Shown: positions 1-8,224, counted from the first letter of the stretch. The stretch is 64,000 nucleotides of DNA from Nitrosopumilus sp. (GCA_965206745.1 OZ242220.1:448001-512000), one strand, 5' to 3'. Translations and numbers: made by a program. Notes: generated by a model not told the origin, from the letters alone.

Positions 1-285
1 ATTTGAGAAAAATCTCATAGAATTTGACATCAGACACTTACTTTCAAGGATGAATCATTCTCAGACAAACGGCAAGATAGAAAGATTCCAAGGAGAGATT
101 CAGGTAACGCAGAAATGGTTTAAAATCTAGATGATCTGATATATTGACACAATCATATCAAGTCATATGGATTACTTGACTGGAAGACACTTGAGATCTC
201 TATTAAAACATTTAAGCGAAAGATATCAGAAAAATATACAGTAGTTATAGATGAGTAGACAGGAGAGAAATATCTTGTCAAGTAA
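1..285 (+). pseudogene. IS481/IS3-type DDE transposase C-terminal remnant (frameshift plus internal stops), runs off the window start
   Basis: Frame 2 reads FEKNLIEFDIRHLLSRMNHSQTNGKIERFQGEIQ, matching the integrase-core HPQTNGKIERF motif. After a frameshift it reads LIY*HNHIKSYGLLDWKTLE..., a degenerate YNxxRPHxSL motif, with stops. Confidence 0.75.
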
Positions 286-322
286 GAGATGAATTAATTT
301 TGGGATGGGTCAGAAATCAATT

Positions 323-1393
323 CTAAGAATACTTTTTATATATTTTCTCCTCCTCTGTTTCTCCTTCTTCATGATGTGGTGATGGTTTTACAATATGACG
401 AGTTTTTTCTTTAATGATAATTAATGATTTATTTTTTTCTTTTAAATAATTTTTAAGAAAAGAACTTTTTATTTGCAGTCTTACCCCTCGTGTAATTCTT
501 TCTCGACTATTTCTATCTCCATTATATGGCCCAACCCAAAATTGAAATTTAATAATTTGTTCACCATTATAAAACATATCCAATACCTTTCCCCACGATA
601 AGTTATTTTCACTAATGAATTCTTCACTAAGACGAACTAATTTGCTTTCCGAATGATGGCTCCATTTGTTGTCAAATTTAGTTATAATATGTTCATAAAG
701 CATACCTTGATTAGAAGGAATTTTCCAATTCTTAAATTCTTCAAATGTATTAACCTCAGGAGTAAAAATAAAATCTTTAGATTCAAAATATTCTAACATA
801 TCTTGGATTTTTTCTATTTTTGAATTTTTAATTAAAGCTGATGATAACTCTTCAAACTCCTGTAATTCTTCTGAAAAAATTGGATATTTTACTTCTGATT
901 GAGAATAAATTGTCACAAATTCATTGTTTTCGAATAGATTCTCAGGTAATTTCAACTCAAAATCTAACCATTGCTCTTTTGATTTTTTTGGCAATTTAAT
1001 ATCTGAAGGTATCTCTACGCAATAATTTTCTGGCAAGTATGTATCATACGATGTCAATTTCAAAAGTAATTGTTCTGGAATTTCTAATTTTTGTTTTATA
1101 ATTTTTTCTTGTAAGATTAAATAAAATGCTGCCCTACAATAATTATTTTGTGGGGTATTGACATTAATTGGAAAATGGTATTGATCTATATAGCGATTTT
1201 GAATCTCTAAAATTTTCTTTTGTGATTGATTTCTATCATATCCTAATTTTACTGCTTTGTTAAATATTTCTTCATCAAGTTCTTCTTTCAAATATGTTTC
1301 AAAATATTTAATAATATCTCGAAATGAATTACGTACCCATGAGAAAAAAAATTCTTTATCTGGAATTTCATCATAAGATTTAATCATATTCAA
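323..1393 (-). CDS. Hypothetical protein coupled to the upstream STAND NTPase (partner or split C-terminal domain); likely start ATG at 1387
   Basis: 356-aa ORF in the same AT-rich DNA; ATGATTAA start/stop overlap with the 1566-aa gene. Confidence 0.75.
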   Translation of the reverse strand: MNMIKSYDEIPDKEFFFSWVRNSFRDIIKYFETYLKEELDEEIFNKAVKLGYDRNQSQKKILEIQNRYIDQYHFPINVNTPQNNYCRAAFYLILQEKIIKQKLEIPEQLLLKLTSYDTYLPENYCVEIPSDIKLPKKSKEQWLDFELKLPENLFENNEFVTIYSQSEVKYPIFSEELQEFEELSSALIKNSKIEKIQDMLEYFESKDFIFTPEVNTFEEFKNWKIPSNQGMLYEHIITKFDNKWSHHSESKLVRLSEEFISENNLSWGKVLDMFYNGEQIIKFQFWVGPYNGDRNSRERITRGVRLQIKSSFLKNYLKEKNKSLIIIKEKTRHIVKPSPHHEEGETEEEKIYKKYS

Positions 1394-4300
1394 TTTCTCG
1401 TTTCATATGTTTGGCAGTTAATTGAAAATTTATGTAAATGCTGTTTTCTAAATATTTGATTGATTTTTTAATTAATGTAGAATTATCATGTGTAGAAGTT
1501 ACATAACTATCAATAATGGCTGATAATTTTTCTTTAATTATGTATTGTGATGAATCACTTAGAAGTGTTTCTATACAATTTTCTAAAATATTTGGAATTT
1601 TTAATTTTATGCATTGGATCAATGCAACATATGCCTTTTTTGAAACTTCTGTATCAGAACAGTTTAATTGTTCTAATAAAAAGAGATACCCAACTTGATG
1701 GGGATTGTCGTCTTCAGAAAATGTTTCTAACCATGAAAAATCATGCTTGAAATCCATGATCCTTTCTCTGAATAAAGAATCTAAAAAGGATATAATTTTA
1801 TCAGAAAATTCTTGAAGTGAAGATATTTGTTTTGTTTTTGATAGAAATTTACCATAAGATTTGGCCATTCCTCTGGCTGACCAATGATAAGTTAGACATT
1901 TTTCAGATAATCCTCCACAGATGAGCAATTGAGTTTTTTCTGAGTCTATTTTATGTGATTTTTCCAGTAATTGTGTGTAATCTATTCGCGAATTCCAACC
2001 CTCTTTTTCATCAAATTCGGTATACAATTCCTCTGGAGTCTTCCCTTCAATGACCATTTTTCTTTTAGAAGATTCTATATTGGACTTACAATTTTTTAGT
2101 ACCAATGCTGGTAATCCTAAAACTGAAGATAATTGATTAAATTTTGTTTCCATAATTTTTATTGTTTCAGAAAAATCTTGTAGTAATTCTCTACGTAAAT
2201 CTTCAATCAATTCTTTTGCTAAATCCGGTTTTGGGTTTAACAAACTTGTAATAATGGAGTATTTGATTTCAAATAATTCTAAATTGTTATTGGTATTGTT
2301 ATTAGATTCAAATATCATGGTTTTTAGTAAATAATATCTTAAAACAGGATTACATTCAACTTTTGTTTTACAAAATTCTTGAACTATACTGGAAAAATGA
2401 TAGGAATCAACTCCGTATTCTTGAATTGCTTTTAATCCTGCTTTTGAATTATATTTTAACATTTTTTTAATAGTTAATGTTGAGATTAATTCGTTTCCAG
2501 AATTGTCTGACATATTAGTCAAAAATTCGGTATATTTTAATATAATTCCAAAATTTTTCAAAACAAATTTCTGTTTGTAAGTGCCAAGTTCATCAAATAT
2601 TTCTAACACTTCAAACAGAAAAACATCTTTACTCCATCCATAACTATGACTTAAAATTATTGATTTATCAAAATAATTCTGAGCATTTTCTTTGTTATTA
2701 ATTGACAAAAATAACGATGTAACATCAAGACAATCATTTATCATATGTGATGTATCATTAAATATAATTGGAGTTGTTCCTAATCTAATAATCTCATTAT
2801 GTATCTCTTTGTTATTAGAATATTTTGCAATTAATTCCATAAAATTATACTTAGAAATCGATGTAAACACATACTTTGAAGCAAATTTATCATAATTATT
2901 CAAAAATTGTTTTTGTTTTGCAGTGGTTGATTTTGATATAATTAACTGAATAGACTCTTCAATGATTTTTGAAATATAGTTTTGAAATGCATGATCTAGA
3001 TATCCCGGCTCATCAAATATGCGCTGTTGGTCATAATTCATCATGGAAATTAATAGATTATACAAGACATCAATTTCATTTTGATTTATTTCATCATTTT
3101 TTTTCATAGATAGAACTGTGTTGTGATATACTGTTAGAAGAGCTCTTTTAAAAAAAGAGTCAGATTTATCGTTAATCATTTTATAATAATACTTTAGATT
3201 TTCTAAATTTTTAATGTATGTAGATATTGAGATATTTTTTTCTAGATTCAAAAAGTCAGATATATTTATTTTTTTTTGTTGTGGATCTACGATAGAAACT
3301 TTTTTGAAATATCCTTGAATTTCTTCTTTTTCAATGTCAGATTTTTTTAAGAATAATCTAAATTCAGGAATATTGCTAGATAGTAATTCATTCTTTTGAT
3401 TTTTGAAATGAATTTTAAATTCTTTTAATTTATCATAGTAATTTAAAATTTCAAATAGTAATAAATTCCAAAAAACTTCAAGTTTGGTTCCATCTATTTG
3501 TGAAGATGTAATTTCATCAAAAGTTGTAAAAGGCAACACATTTTTTATTATGGATTGAATTGTGTCAAATTTAAAATTATTTGCATCGATAAATGAAATA
3601 ACTCGTTGAAAATTTTCAAAATAACACAGTATTATTGCATAATCATTTAATGATATTCCTGTTGGTAGTCTATTTTGTTCTTCAAGTGGAGTTGATTTGT
3701 AAGTTTTTTTCCATATTTCTAAAATTTCTTGATATGGAAGTTCTAATTCATTTTTTAATCCATTTGCTAGATACCAAACAGTTTCACTAAGCGATAAATT
3801 CAGTTTTTTCTCATATGACAACAGAGGGGCAATTTTTTCAGGTGATAATTTAAAAATCCATTTTTCAAATTTTGATTCATCAAGATTTTGAAATCGTTCG
3901 ATAGTATATTTTTTCAGTAATGCCTTTTCTATTATAGAAATCGGGTCAAGTTTCTCAAATGCTGCTCTAATTGCGATATCTATATTATTTTGAATATCTT
4001 GCCTATTACAAATTTGAATGACAGAGTTATCTACAAACTTTACATCAACAATTTTTAGAATTTCATCTCGTTTTTTTGCTTTTAATCCATATTTCAATGC
4101 ATGACGATATGCCTTCTGATTAGTGAACAAATTAAGTAACAATATATTATAAATTTTTTCAGAATATTCTATTTTGGCTATTTCATCAAAATCTACATGT
4201 TGAAGTAAATATTCTCTAAAACTATCGTGGAATATGCTTACCTCATCAACCTCATTTGTACGTAAAAGAGAAAACAGAGGCTTCATCGAATAATATAATG

Positions 4301-6080
4301 GCTTATAGTCTCTTTGTTCTTTAGGATATAAAATTTCCAAGAATGCATTACTTGCCGGAAATTCCAACAGTGCAAGATATTTTGCCAAAATTTTACTAAA
4401 ATCGTGTACTGTTGATTGTTCTTCCCACAAATAATCGTAGTATTTTTTAACATCTCCCTGTGTTAAGGGGATTTTTTGAACAATTTCAAAATCTGCATGT
4501 TTTAATAATAATTGGGTGAAATAATTTACCAGCAATGGTAATCCTTCAGTTATCTCCATTATTTTATTTAATTTTTCTGATTCACAAAATTCTTTAGATA
4601 TTTTTGATTTATCAAAATATCTTTTTACTTCTTCTTTTCTAAATCCTGAAATTTGAAAAAATACATCATTCCCATATTTTATTTTCAAATCATCAAGATG
4701 TGATCCTTCTTGAGTCCCAATGATAAAACAAATTCCTTTGGGTATATTTACTTCCTTTAGAAAATCAAATATGGTTTCATCATCTTTTGAAAGACTATGA
4801 GCTCTTTTCTTTATTCGATCAACATGATCTAATCCATCTATAATTATTGGAATGATGATATTTTTACTTTCTGCAATTTGTCCAATTTTATTAAATAAAT
4901 TTTGTAATTTTTCGGAAGTTACACTATATTCATTTTTAATATTGAATTTGTAACCATCTGAAATTAATTTCATAAAATTATTCAATAATTTTTGTTTTGT
5001 GATTCTAATTTCCATATCTTGATCCTCTGTTACACTTATGGAGGCATAATGCCATATTGGAGGGGTATCAGGAAATTTTTCTGCAAACCTCTTTCGCCAT
5101 TTTGTTAATAGCCAAGTTTTACCTGAGCCTGGCTTCCCATAAATTATTAGAATATTTCCAGAGTTTTCTTCTATTTTTTCATCTAATAATTTTAAATTTT
5201 GTTTAGTAATCACATATTGTGATTCATCAAAATTAATTATATTTTTAATAGAATCAAAATCTTGTTTGATTTTTAAACGACCTTCAAGCTTAGATTTTGT
5301 CATTTCTTCAGCTGTTATTGACTCTTCATTTACAATGTTGAACAAGGATGTAAAAATTGAATCAATATCCATATTTTGAGGAGGTAAATGAAGCTCTAGT
5401 GCTTCGATTTTTGATTTTATGATCTCTCCGACTGATCCTGTAAATACATTATATTGAAAACTAGAAGGGGGATTTTCAGGTTGTTCTGTTTCTATAATCA
5501 CATGACTTAAACAATCTTTTAAATTAAGATCCAAATTTAATTTTTCAATATTTTCTCTCATATTTTTGAATTCATTATCAAATAAAATCTGATTAGAAAA
5601 ACAATATACCTTATCTTTATTTTCACACGCTACTGTTCTTTCATCTTCTATTTTCTCTAAAAAATTCAATAAAGGATTTAAATCTGAAATTGATTTTGTG
5701 GTATAGATATGAAAATAATTCTCATATTTTTGAAATTCTTTTGTTAAATTTGCCCATGATGAAAAAATTTGAATTAAACTAAGGCCAATTTTATTTGTGG
5801 TAAAATCTTTCAGTTGTAATTCATTTTGTACATAGCTAGCCTTTATCTGATAATGATGAATTTTATTCTTTTCGAAGACTTTGATGTCATCAAATTTATC
5901 TTCAATGACTTCTTTTTTCTCAAAAATCACTTTTTCTATTTTCCCATTCAAAAGATCTATTAATCTAAACACACCAATTAGATTTTGATATCTATATCCA
6001 AATAGATTACTTTTTGGTTTTGGAGAAATAATTTTAACCATATTTTTTGATATATTTTTATTGTTAATATCCTCTACCAT
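1380..6080 (-). CDS. Cap4-like endonuclease + STAND (NACHT-like) NTPase + long helical C-terminus; Avs/AVAST-like antiviral protein
   Basis: N-terminal GYRYQ...FDDI...YQIK (PD-D/ExK, QxK type); Walker A GKPGSGKT; Walker B IIIDGLDHV; GLPL motif; FHDSFREYL winged-helix motif. Confidence 0.85.
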   Translation of the reverse strand: MVEDINNKNISKNMVKIISPKPKSNLFGYRYQNLIGVFRLIDLLNGKIEKVIFEKKEVIEDKFDDIKVFEKNKIHHYQIKASYVQNELQLKDFTTNKIGLSLIQIFSSWANLTKEFQKYENYFHIYTTKSISDLNPLLNFLEKIEDERTVACENKDKVYCFSNQILFDNEFKNMRENIEKLNLDLNLKDCLSHVIIETEQPENPPSSFQYNVFTGSVGEIIKSKIEALELHLPPQNMDIDSIFTSLFNIVNEESITAEEMTKSKLEGRLKIKQDFDSIKNIINFDESQYVITKQNLKLLDEKIEENSGNILIIYGKPGSGKTWLLTKWRKRFAEKFPDTPPIWHYASISVTEDQDMEIRITKQKLLNNFMKLISDGYKFNIKNEYSVTSEKLQNLFNKIGQIAESKNIIIPIIIDGLDHVDRIKKRAHSLSKDDETIFDFLKEVNIPKGICFIIGTQEGSHLDDLKIKYGNDVFFQISGFRKEEVKRYFDKSKISKEFCESEKLNKIMEITEGLPLLVNYFTQLLLKHADFEIVQKIPLTQGDVKKYYDYLWEEQSTVHDFSKILAKYLALLEFPASNAFLEILYPKEQRDYKPLYYSMKPLFSLLRTNEVDEVSIFHDSFREYLLQHVDFDEIAKIEYSEKIYNILLLNLFTNQKAYRHALKYGLKAKKRDEILKIVDVKFVDNSVIQICNRQDIQNNIDIAIRAAFEKLDPISIIEKALLKKYTIERFQNLDESKFEKWIFKLSPEKIAPLLSYEKKLNLSLSETVWYLANGLKNELELPYQEILEIWKKTYKSTPLEEQNRLPTGISLNDYAIILCYFENFQRVISFIDANNFKFDTIQSIIKNVLPFTTFDEITSSQIDGTKLEVFWNLLLFEILNYYDKLKEFKIHFKNQKNELLSSNIPEFRLFLKKSDIEKEEIQGYFKKVSIVDPQQKKINISDFLNLEKNISISTYIKNLENLKYYYKMINDKSDSFFKRALLTVYHNTVLSMKKNDEINQNEIDVLYNLLISMMNYDQQRIFDEPGYLDHAFQNYISKIIEESIQLIISKSTTAKQKQFLNNYDKFASKYVFTSISKYNFMELIAKYSNNKEIHNEIIRLGTTPIIFNDTSHMINDCLDVTSLFLSINNKENAQNYFDKSIILSHSYGWSKDVFLFEVLEIFDELGTYKQKFVLKNFGIILKYTEFLTNMSDNSGNELISTLTIKKMLKYNSKAGLKAIQEYGVDSYHFSSIVQEFCKTKVECNPVLRYYLLKTMIFESNNNTNNNLELFEIKYSIITSLLNPKPDLAKELIEDLRRELLQDFSETIKIMETKFNQLSSVLGLPALVLKNCKSNIESSKRKMVIEGKTPEELYTEFDEKEGWNSRIDYTQLLEKSHKIDSEKTQLLICGGLSEKCLTYHWSARGMAKSYGKFLSKTKQISSLQEFSDKIISFLDSLFRERIMDFKHDFSWLETFSEDDNPHQVGYLFLLEQLNCSDTEVSKKAYVALIQCIKLKIPNILENCIETLLSDSSQYIIKEKLSAIIDSYVTSTHDNSTLIKKSIKYLENSIYINFQLTAKHMKREIEYD

Positions 6081-6293
6081 TAATGATGCTGTGAAGTTGA
6101 TAGAGGTTGTGTATTAAATGTAGATCTACTTCTGTTTCAAAAAATTTCATATTTCGAATAGTTAATCAGAGTTCTGTGTAGTCTTAGAATAAGATCCGTA
6201 TTTAGTGTCCAAATCCCAAAGATTTGACAGTACCGAGTATCCAAATAGTGTAATAACCTTCTAATTAATTATTTATTTACTGTTCTCTAAATT

Positions 6294-6764
6294 ATGGATA
6301 TGTTTACTCTCACACAAAAAGAGATTCAAGATGCTAAGATTTATGATACCTCAAAACATGAAATTATTCGTAAATATCTATTCAATTTTTTTAAAAAGAA
6401 ATTCTCACTTTTTAATGATCAACAAAATAAAGTTGAATGTTGTAATCATGGTCTAGAAAAGTACACTATTGAAAAATATGATTATTCTACTAGTTTGCCT
6501 GGATCTTGTCTGGGAAATACTTTTGCAGACTGGCAAAATGTTTTTAGTATTCATACAAAAGCTAGATTTGACTGTGGTCGTGAATTCATATTGGGATATT
6601 TTTTTAATTTTAGATATGGAGATTTGATTTCCATAATAAAACAACTTGATGATATGGATGATTCAGATTTTTTAAAGGGTAAAAAATTTGATGATAACAA
6701 TCAAATTGGCATCATGACTGGTTTTATGAGAAATAATTTTGCCGATCACAATATTGGATTTTAG
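6294..6764 (+). CDS. Hypothetical protein (AT-rich island)
   Basis: 156-aa ATG ORF; no recognised motif. Confidence 0.55.
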   Translation: MDMFTLTQKEIQDAKIYDTSKHEIIRKYLFNFFKKKFSLFNDQQNKVECCNHGLEKYTIEKYDYSTSLPGSCLGNTFADWQNVFSIHTKARFDCGREFILGYFFNFRYGDLISIIKQLDDMDDSDFLKGKKFDDNNQIGIMTGFMRNNFADHNIGF

Positions 6765-7095
6765 AAATATTGAGACATATTCAAAACGTATAACGTCGAT
6801 GTATTTGATCTATATGTCTGATAATAATAGTTCAGAATATGCCTAAGATTGGTAGATATAATTTTTGTACAATAGATTACATACATTTTCTAAAGAACTA
6901 CTCATTTTCATTATTTCTACAATAATTGAAGGCATGATAATTTTAATAATTATATATTGAGATTATTGTATTTAGAACATTCTGCAAAAGAAATATGTAT
7001 TATATTTGATGGTGCAATGAAAGATGTAGATGTCACTGTACAAGAATATCTAGGTTGGGAATATGATTGCAAAAAAATAAAATTACATTATTTTT

Positions 7096-7311
7096 TTAAA
7101 GTTCTTCGATATTCTCTTTATGATGTATAATTATAGTAACAATGGTGATATCATCTAATATTGAATGAGTTCTAACATGGCTTGTATTATTTTTTCCAAA
7201 ATGTACACTTTTCTCTTTTTTCATCTGACAAATATGGCATGATAAAAGAGCAAGTTCTACATATCCCTGTCTTGTTCTTCTTGAAGATTCTAGTGTGAAA
7301 TGAATAGTCAT
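7096..7311 (-). CDS. Small hypothetical protein with CxxC
   Basis: 71-aa ORF containing SCHIC; GGTGA SD-like sequence just upstream. Confidence 0.4.
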   Translation of the reverse strand: MTIHFTLESSRRTRQGYVELALLSCHICQMKKEKSVHFGKNNTSHVRTHSILDDITIVTIIIHHKENIEEL

Positions 7312-7401
7312 TCATCATCACCAAGTTCCACTTTCATGCTCAGTCAAGTAGGCATGATGTCCTTTATGGGCAAGGTAGTTTGTCGTGCAGAACAGTTTTG
7401 A

Positions 7402-7479
7402 TGGTGGGCCCGATGTGATTCGAACACATGACCTTTCGATTATCAGTCGAACGCTCCAGCCAAGCTGAGCTACGAGCCC
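7402..7479 (-). tRNA. tRNA-Ile(GAT), CCA encoded
   Basis: Reverse complement GGGCTCG...TTCGA-CT-GAT-AA-TCGAA...GTTCGAAT...CGGGCCC-A-CCA forms a full cloverleaf. Confidence 0.97.
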
Positions 7480-7512: not shown

Positions 7513-8067
7513 TTAATTTCCCTTCCACTTGATTGAACACCCGATTGACGGGTCAAAATCTTTTTCAATCTTCTTGCCTGATAACAACTTCTCAATGTTG
7601 ACAATCATTGTCTTCTCTGTTGCCTCATCCTCTGGCTTCATGGCGTCATCTATTTTTCCGTGAAAAACTAGCTGTTTTTGTGCGTCAAACAGGAATGGAT
7701 CCGGAGTGCACATTGCACCGTATCTCTTTGCGATCTCCTGTGACTCGTCTACCAGATAGTCAAACTCAAAGCCCTTTTCCCTTGCTGTCTGTTTCATGGC
7801 ATCAAAGCTGTCCTCTGGATAATTCGTAGAGTCGTTGCTGTTGATTCCGATAACTGCAATATCCTTGCCACATCTTTGGTATAGTTCGTTGAGGGCATCT
7901 GCCTTTGCCTTAACGTATGGGCAGTGATTGCACATGAAAATTATCAGGATTCCCTTGTAATTCCCATAGTCACTGATCGAATGCATTTTATCATCAATCC
8001 CCATCAGCTCAAAATCTGGTGCCAAATCCCCTGTCTTTAGCTTGATCTGTGATTCCAAAAGTACCAT
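7513..8067 (-). CDS. Thioredoxin-family (AhpC/TSA-like) protein
   Basis: APDFEL, FMCNHCPYV, TPDPFLFD, PSIGCSIKW motifs. Confidence 0.9.
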   Translation of the reverse strand: MVLLESQIKLKTGDLAPDFELMGIDDKMHSISDYGNYKGILIIFMCNHCPYVKAKADALNELYQRCGKDIAVIGINSNDSTNYPEDSFDAMKQTAREKGFEFDYLVDESQEIAKRYGAMCTPDPFLFDAQKQLVFHGKIDDAMKPEDEATEKTMIVNIEKLLSGKKIEKDFDPSIGCSIKWKGN

Positions 8068-8147: not shown

Positions 8148-8224
8148 GGGCCGGTAGTATAGCCTGGTAGTATACCCGCCTTGCACGCGGGGGGTCACGG
8201 ATTCGAATTCCGTCCGGTCCACCA
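8148..8224 (+). tRNA. tRNA-Ala(TGC), CCA encoded
   Basis: GGGCCGG/CCGGTCC acceptor stem with G3:U70; anticodon arm CCCGC-CT-TGC-AC-GCGGG. Confidence 0.97.

Follow-up and report, generated by a model that had tools for sequence, protein, structure and literature searches.

Avs proteins correspond in prokaryotes to NLR immune receptors, and how their sensor communicates with the NTPase is an active question. We analyzed a stretch of 64,000 nucleotides (nt) from Nitrosopumilus sp. (GCA_965206745.1, OZ242220.1:448001-512000), hereafter called the window. Close to its start the window carries two overlapping genes, encoding a large nuclease-STAND-helical protein (P0001) and a small protein (P0002), which may together form an Avs-like antiviral receptor whose C-terminal sensor is encoded separately. 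The reading frames, their overlap, the motifs, the AT-rich setting and the nearby tRNA-Ile gene, listed in Table 1, were found as an earlier reading of the sequence (the original prediction) had described them.

The TAA of gene 1 and the ATG of gene 2 overlap by 8 nt; the junction reads ...GAATATGATTAAatc, and a longer stretch of it is GAATATGATTAA. Because of this overlap, gene 2 is probably co-transcribed with gene 1 and translationally coupled to it. The open reading frame (ORF) of the small gene can also be read from a TTG at 1393 (323..1393, minus strand, 356 amino acids (aa)), where the numbering of P0002 begins. However, since homologs of the small protein begin at an equivalent methionine, the ATG at 1387 (MIKSYDE..., 354 aa) is likely to be the true start. 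Relative to the large gene, the small one is read in the +1 frame, and the arithmetic of the original prediction, according to which a single deleted base would fuse the two frames, is right. Its estimate that the summed size comes near that of a one-gene Avs also holds, the two products adding up to 1566 + 354 = 1920 aa, inside the 1876-2152 aa range of most one-gene relatives (48/56). An open frame of 4.7 kb in DNA of 25% GC, with 11 homologs, is far beyond chance. The sequence of the junction was compared with Logan contigs from two sequencing runs that belong to one study. The contig of run X1 (7791 nt, depth 448), a run which may be the source of the assembly itself, spans the whole of the gene pair, and that of run X2 covers positions 300-1556; at the junction both showed 0 differences and 0 gaps relative to the window.

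Table 1. Coordinates of the gene pair, its predicted domains and the surrounding features in the window
Feature	Position	Strand	Basis and remarks
Gene 1, 1566-aa nuclease-STAND-helical protein (P0001)	1380..6080	-	ORF listing and translation; stop codon within span
Gene 2, putative detached C-terminal sensor (P0002)	323..1387	-	354 aa from ATG at 1387; stop codon within span
Overlap of gene 1 stop and gene 2 start, ATGATTAA	1380..1387	-	Sequence
Predicted Cap4/DUF4297-type PD-(D/E)xK nuclease domain, aa ~23-273	5262..6014	-	AlphaFold2 model, VIA, motif DD64-65, Q78, K80
Predicted STAND NTPase module, aa ~278-720	3921..5249	-	Pfam, Foldseek, VIA; Walker A/B, GLP, FHDSF
Sensor arm of ~846 aa (aa 721-1566), presumed helical/TPR-like	1383..3920	-	Family profile alignment to relatives
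AT-rich island	1..7401	.	GC profiles; reaches ~370 nt left of the window, to tRNA-Ala(GGC)
tRNA-Ile(GAT), 3' end abutting the island	7402..7479	-	ARAGORN; Rfam 65.9 bits
Integrase (rve)-like C-terminal remnant, presumed	2..127	+	~42-codon tail, ...HSQTNGKIERFQGEI...; Pfam rve_3 E 0.068 on 29 aa, not significant
156-aa ORF inside the island, divergent from gene 1	6294..6764	+	No Pfam match

Predicted domains of the two proteins

The N-terminal part of the large protein was modeled with AlphaFold2 from a 35-sequence alignment of the first ~720-760 residues, taken from the related loci. The model reached a predicted local distance difference test score (pLDDT) of 89.1 and a predicted template modeling score (pTM) of 0.85. 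With residues 1-720 of this model as query, the top Foldseek match was SeAvs3 (8dgc_A, E 6e-18, 768 alignment columns). VIA-align placed model residues 17..720 collinearly on residues 2..686 of the same chain (Z 17.9, 532 aligned), with a root-mean-square deviation (rmsd) of 21.5 that is consistent with differing domain orientations. Residues 25-273 of the model matched the nuclease of Cap4 (7yib; Z 15.6, rmsd 3.4, 205 aligned), and VIA also aligned the nuclease domain with HerA-DUF4297 (9c1m_G, Z 15.7) and with Lamassu LmuA (9ux7_C, Z 13.4). For the STAND module the VIA matches were MalT (8bob, Z 20.7), a STAND-TPR protein (6mfv, Z 20.4) and Apaf-1 (Z 18.5). The predicted folds thus confirm a Cap4-type nuclease and a STAND module, the two domains that had been proposed from motifs. 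Those motifs were all present and conserved across relatives: the nuclease motif DD64-65 ... Q78xK80 is at least 90% conserved in the 35-sequence alignment; K321 of the Walker A sequence GKPGSGKT (315-322) is invariant, as is the Walker B sequence DGLD at 415-418 (D415, D418); GLP stands at 513-515 and FHDSF at 617-621. Profile searches agreed for the NTPase, the Pfam families NPHP3_N, NACHT, NB-ARC, AAA_16 and AAA_22 each being matched in 10/10 family members. A Pfam nuclease family was matched in 0/10, Pfam detecting the P-loop/STAND core only. The profile of the large protein gave insignificant matches only against PDB sequences (E>=0.17).

The remaining residues, 721-1566, would form a helical sensor arm, judging from the homology of this region to relatives in hidden Markov model (HMM) alignments and from weak matches to Pfam TPR_8 in 2/10 members. 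The family HMM aligned the arm region up to profile position 1555 in a bacterial two-gene clade described below and to ~1200-1434 in one-gene forms. In the ESM Atlas, residues 721-1566 matched unnamed clusters only, with scores <0.9.

The small protein was modeled from a 10-sequence alignment (pLDDT 83.8, pTM 0.75). The AlphaFold2 model comprises ~6 N-terminal helices followed by a beta-rich domain. The only PDB chains matched by Foldseek at E<=0.001 were both of SeAvs3, 8dgc_A and 8dgc_B (E 1.6e-9 and 2.3e-9, prob 1.0). VIA-align equated residues 10..356 of the P0002 model with residues 1702..2070 of SeAvs3 (Z 14.5, rmsd 5.0, 293 aligned), while the next-best chain reached a Z of 4.3. A beta-strand-rich C-terminal sensor that follows the TPR domain is common to EcAvs2 and SeAvs3, and the two sensors bind the same surface of the ATPase domain of phage terminase (PMC13601566). 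Because the structural match to SeAvs3 1702..2070 takes in the C-terminal sensor as published, the model points to the small protein being a free-standing homolog of this sensor together with the last helices of the arm. The idea that the 356-aa ORF is a separately encoded C-terminal part thus gained a fold homolog in SeAvs3 1702-2070. Sequence profiles pointed to the same end of the protein. The small protein matched positions 1954-2065 of the 2083-position NCBIfam model Avs3a (E 7e-4, 16.8 bits against a cut-off of 2800 bits), and the Avs3a tail (the last ~110 profile positions) was matched by 4/10 members of the small-protein family (best E 4e-5). Apart from this weak tail match, Pfam, PADLOC and NCBIfam yielded nothing for the small protein, and the ESM Atlas gave no usable match for it. 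A complex of P0001 residues 930-1566 and P0002 was also predicted; the runs scored 0.00, 0.80 and 0.00, which is evidence neither way.

Occurrence of the two-gene layout

Relatives of the small protein were collected by searching 1.84 billion cluster representatives exhaustively with phmmer (E<=0.001). This yielded 10 proteins, nine of 328-371 aa and one fragment of 95 aa, and in 0/10 was the small protein embedded in a long protein. The original prediction had suggested asking whether its homologs are C-terminal parts of single ~1900-aa proteins; all full-length relatives are instead free-standing (9/9). The large protein was used in a word-indexed search restricted to lengths of 861-2741 aa, in which one-gene forms of ~1900-2000 aa would have shown. 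The search returned 11 other proteins of 1476-1596 aa. The nine close relatives among them, which share 26-73% identity in alignment A2 and are covered to at least 87%, have lengths of 1487-1566 aa.

The layout was inspected at three loci of this archaeal-type clade, namely the window, a family-level relative (L005/L008) and a locus in a bacterial MAG (metagenome-assembled genome; L007). All three carry two genes, each with a different junction geometry. In L005/L008 a gene for 1540 aa is separated from one for 353 aa by a 10-nt gap, and in L007 genes for 1557 aa and ~369 aa overlap in a different frame. The small-protein family itself diverges down to 21% identity. We considered whether the two ORFs are a pseudogene, with a single Avs gene interrupted by a recent frameshift, or an artefact of sequencing. 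A single deleted base near the junction fuses the frames, and the summed length equals that of one-gene relatives. However, such a break is extremely improbable in view of the free-standing small-protein relatives, the ends of the close large-protein relatives, none of which extends beyond the lengths given above, and the split at 3/3 loci with differing junction geometries and frames. Moreover, the depth-448 contig and the contig of the second run lack the fusing indel that the original prediction had named as the refuting case, and both ORFs are intact with conserved motifs. A programmed frameshift leading to a fused product was rejected as well, the small gene occupying different relative frames at different loci. 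The two-gene layout is thus a conserved natural split and not a broken gene. The original prediction had offered either a split sensor or a new two-component Avs variant, and both descriptions hold in essence, the split being kept in relatives.

A scan of a genome collection with alignment A2 as query returned 80 loci, and a metagenome scan four loci only, all distant. Among these, 14 loci form a bacterial two-gene class (L010, L012-L014, L016-L021, L025, L031, L035, L043), in which an ORF of 286-301 aa overlaps or abuts the end of one of 1491-1604 aa (~1580 + ~287 aa). The hosts are Pseudomonadota, Campylobacterota and one MAG of Bacteroidota; examples are Pseudoalteromonas luteoviolacea (L018), Vibrio rumoiensis (L019) and a member of the Campylobacterales (L010). 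The one-gene forms, of 1809-2152 aa, have no such small neighbor ORF. An HMM of the bacterial small ORFs (A3) matched the last ~200-280 residues of eight one-gene proteins with E values from 3.5e-32 to 1e-4. The best match covered residues 1580-1860 of the 1885-aa protein of L064, followed by L036, L080, L044, L058, L009, L063 and L032. When A3 was compared by hhalign with the last 420 residues of the proteins in the one-gene sister clade (A5), the two aligned over 230 columns with a probability of 97.4% (E 1.4e-11). The bacterial two-gene systems resemble the archaeal-type pair in their nuclease-STAND-arm layout, with the family HMM aligned over positions 9-1555, in a small gene that overlaps the end of the large gene and in that this small gene corresponds to the C-terminus of one-gene relatives. 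They differ in forming a separate, nested clade and in the small protein, which has 287 aa instead of 354 and no significant sequence similarity to the archaeal type.

The relationship of the two groups was analyzed with a quick maximum-likelihood tree, built under LG+G4 from the first 800 residues in 83 rows and with SH-aLRT as its sole support measure. The tree omits loci whose best ORF is <1400 aa or lacks a match to the family HMM, as well as L003 and L005, duplicates of L008. The clade of the window comprises 12 rows (support 99), all of 1487-1566 aa, and is sister to a bacterial clade of 32 rows. Within this bacterial clade, the 14 two-gene rows (support 100) nest among one-gene forms of 1876-1931 aa. 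By parsimony, this topology would require two separate splits at the same domain boundary. The split design is not unique to the ammonia-oxidizing archaeon; a bacterial clade shares it. One of the two split lineages is common to ammonia-oxidizing archaea and a sponge-associated bacterium.

An HMM of the archaeal-type small proteins (A1) gave weak matches only on long relatives, all at extreme C-termini (L067, L081 and L034). In L067 the match covered residues 1867-1947 of 1954 (E 1.8e-4) and in L034 residues 1853-2144 of 2152 (domain E 0.003). The latter is a one-gene form whose neighbor, of 516 aa, is unrelated; A1 matches the C-terminus of the large protein itself, and L034 does not represent a further split. 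The bacterial small protein is recognized by neither PADLOC nor NCBIfam. The bacterial large protein matches 0 NCBIfam families and gave one weak SAVED_PDDEXK match, in L018. Six distant nuclease-STAND relatives, with 23-29% identity over parts, were seen on viral or proviral contigs of IMG/VR (L093-L098).

A putative split receptor and its alternatives

SeAvs3 binds the large terminase, tetramerizes, degrades double-stranded DNA and protects against virus (PMC13601566). The pair in the window shares with SeAvs3 (PDB 8DGC) the order of parts, that is, a Cap4-type nuclease, a STAND NTPase, a presumed long sensor arm and a beta-rich C-terminal sensor, and SeAvs3 is the best structural match overall for the small protein and, by Foldseek, for the N-terminal part of the large one. 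The lengths are also similar (~2080 aa vs 1920 aa summed). In contrast to the single polypeptide of SeAvs3, the last ~355 residues are encoded here by a separate gene, the sensor arm is ~150 aa shorter, the host is an archaeon and identity is 12-13% for both proteins (13% for the small one). Taken together, we consider it likely that the pair arrived by horizontal transfer and forms a two-gene antiviral STAND receptor of the Avs1/Avs3 kind.

How such a receptor would work can be sketched by analogy. In the product of gene 1, the Cap4-type nuclease would be the effector and the STAND NTPase the switch, with a sensor arm of ~850 aa following them, and the product of gene 2 would correspond to the last ~370 residues of SeAvs3, a short helical piece and the beta-rich C-terminal sensor. 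The two proteins may associate non-covalently, the small subunit docking on the end of the arm and rebuilding the ligand-binding cleft. A conserved viral protein would then bind in this cleft; by analogy it would most likely be the large terminase of tailed archaeal viruses, bound through its ATPase domain. Binding would lead to oligomerization dependent on nucleoside triphosphate, bringing the nuclease heads together, so that DNA would be degraded and the infection aborted. We infer the assembly of the subunits, the ligand, the oligomerization and the outcome for defense, and with them the sensing of an archaeal-virus protein, from SeAvs3 by analogy.

Several observations weigh against this interpretation. 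The identification of the small protein rests on a predicted structure at 13% identity and on weak HMM matches, and its profile found 0 matches at E<=1 among PDB sequences. Comparisons by hhalign of the archaeal-type small protein (A1) with the bacterial small protein (A3) and with the C-termini of the nearest one-gene relatives (A5) were not significant (E 0.089 and 0.58, respectively). By the profile searches, neither protein reaches a curated Avs model. At such divergence, the ligand need not be terminase.

The relation to the named Avs types was examined with the curated models. PADLOC matched the large protein to Avs1b alone (AVAST type 1; E 2.8e-18, 62.7 bits), the best HMM match of the NTPase. 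However, the Avs1b model describes a protease-bearing protein, and the 1924-position PADLOC profile was matched over the NTPase only (residues 287-711). The NCBIfam model of Avs1b gave 25.8 bits, far below its cut-off of 1500 bits, with residues 384-627 only, and the large protein had no match at E<=1 to NCBIfam Avs3a (NF041816). An Avs3 consists of a single polypeptide, whereas two ORFs are present here, split at 3/3 loci. The likeness to Avs3 put forward in the original prediction is thus borne out for architecture and folds and not for membership in canonical Avs3, as judged from the 16.8 of 2800 bits and from Avs1b being the best match of the NTPase. The system is best described as a probable Avs1/Avs3-like relative, not a canonical Avs3. 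In the broad sense of Avs, an effector combined with a STAND NTPase and a large sensor in a mobile or variable region, it has all parts. Nucleases of the same fold, sharing the D...QxK active-site motif, are found in Cap4 of CBASS, in HerA-DUF4297 and in Lamassu LmuA. Those are activated by cyclic nucleotides (SAVED), by HerA and by LmuB/SMC partners, respectively; in P0001 the nuclease is joined in one chain with a STAND NTPase, an arrangement known from Avs3.

Divergence also bears on the ligand. A genuine split Avs-like receptor might sense something other than the large terminase. The ligand could, for instance, be another conserved protein of the virion or of replication, or come from non-tailed archaeal viruses or other mobile elements. 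An identity to SeAvs3 of only 12-13% would allow for this, Avs families of similar architecture sense at least 13 different phage proteins (PMC12803255/PMC13581612), and KpAvs2 senses several proteins (PMC11564622). However, the C-terminal sensor fold has so far been tied to binding of the terminase ATPase in Avs2 and Avs3, and Avs1, the best NTPase match here, is also a terminase sensor (PMC13601566), so that we regard a different ligand as very unlikely.

A further question is whether the small protein is a permanently docked piece of the receptor. As a homolog of the sensor tail it might instead be a regulatory subunit that acts on its own. It could hold the receptor in the off state, serve as a guarded decoy whose capture or destruction by a virus triggers the receptor, or be an exchangeable adaptor, binding the viral protein first and docking afterwards. 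The split persisted over a long divergence (to 21% identity) and seems to have arisen twice independently at the same boundary, suggesting a benefit of separation. The small protein also evolves faster than the large one, with 67/45/38% identity vs 73/58/51% for the top three homologs (pairing assumed). In addition, deletion of the TPR and C-terminal domains auto-activates Avs2-trypsin (preprint 10.64898/2026.08.25.746987), from which it follows that a sensor tail may be inhibitory as well. On the other hand, a tight overlap with coupling is what would be expected of subunits made in equal amounts for one complex, and the fold match spans the whole protein, collinear with one contiguous stretch of SeAvs3, as simple fission predicts. 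We therefore consider a free regulatory subunit unlikely. Taken further, the detached tail could be a functionally separate subunit, and the pair a two-component NLR-like receptor in the true sense. As an exchangeable or guarded sensor, or as an inhibitor, the tail would bind the viral protein or be attacked by the virus and in this way license the nuclease-STAND subunit. Separation would then have been selected for, given that it arose no fewer than two times at one domain boundary. To this possibility, too, we assign a low probability, and a docked subunit of a two-gene Avs1/Avs3-like receptor is the reading we prefer.

The overall kind of system is already known, and a split design is in print, a 'split-TPR variant' of Avs1 associated with Upx being mentioned in passing in PMC13601566. 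Unlike this published variant, neither the island in the window nor the surroundings of L018 contain an Upx-sized gene, and the parts of the supplements to PMC13581612 and PMC13601566 that were searched list no organism of the loci studied as Avs1. In the literature searched, outside of which most subscription papers lie, we found no account of an Avs3-like protein whose C-terminal sensor has a gene of its own, nor of Avs in ammonia-oxidizing archaea. The added interest lies in the archaeal host and in the evidence that the same fission occurred twice. An Avs-type receptor is documented here, as a candidate, in a group of archaea whose antiviral immunity and viruses are poorly known. With a naturally separate C-terminal sensor, the two halves could be expressed, mutated and titrated independently, and the split design offers a test of whether the tail contributes binding energy alone or auto-inhibition too.

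The island, its flanks and its hosts

The genome encodes an archaeal amoA (E 1.7e-116), in line with the ammonia-oxidizing archaeon assumed at the outset. Firm matches to the small protein were found in only 2/401 sampled genomes of the phylum, the genome of the window and G239, and in 0/23 of the other sampled genomes of the genus; the system is thus rare in the phylum and patchy in occurrence. A weak match (E 1.6e-4, residues 141-218) to a 356-aa ORF in G280, from another family of the phylum (L006:8966-10036), is probably unrelated and was rejected, its family HMM E value being 0.22 and the only ORF upstream being one of 264 aa, with no large STAND gene. Outside the archaea, a 39%-identical two-gene module (L007:5983-11768) lies in a 7.3-Mb genome labeled as a Poribacteria MAG, which has no amoA. 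The archaeal-type clade thus appears to cross domains, a distribution that points to exchange of the module between archaea and bacteria, perhaps within communities associated with sponges.

Each of the three hosts examined carries the module as a cassette of low GC content. In the window, GC is 0.23-0.30 over positions 1-7000 (0.25-0.29 for the island) vs 0.42-0.50 in the left flank and 0.39-0.44 in the right flank; the corresponding values are 0.36-0.41 vs 0.48-0.62 in L007 and 0.28-0.33 vs ~0.39 in L008. The pair has evidently been acquired horizontally. The gene to the left of the island encodes an FNR-like oxidoreductase (L091:16582-17427) and the one to the right an AhpC peroxiredoxin (window 7513-8067). 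Since these flank genes are far apart in genomes of the same genus, ~0.6 Mb in G287 and ~55 kb in G182, the island sits at a synteny break. An empty site, with the flank genes adjacent, was not found in the same-genus genomes that have both on one contig.

A search for att-like direct repeats of the tRNA ends gave no 14-mer match, and a repeat search returned AT-rich chance matches only. The original prediction had placed an IS481 remnant to one side of the pair and the 3' end of a tRNA-Ile gene to the other. The tRNA gene does abut the island. As for the remnant, a short tail, which we take to be integrase-like, is present at the left edge, but its Pfam match is not significant and the assignment to IS481 is tentative. 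Beside the homologous modules in L007 and L008, no counterpart of the 156-aa ORF of the island was seen.

On each side the island is bordered by a tRNA gene pointing its 3' end inward, on the right the tRNA-Ile(GAT) of Table 1 and on the left a tRNA-Ala(GGC) located ~373-447 nt to the left of the window start (L091:17553-17627). The 7791-nt contig of run X1 ends near the 3' end of this tRNA-Ala(GGC) on the left and inside the tRNA-Ile on the right. These ends could reflect branching of the assembly graph, caused either by a mixture of cells with and without the island or by tRNA sequence held in common. A further gene, for tRNA-Ala(TGC), is located at 8148-8224 (plus strand), just past the AhpC gene, which brings the number of tRNA genes to three within ~9 kb.

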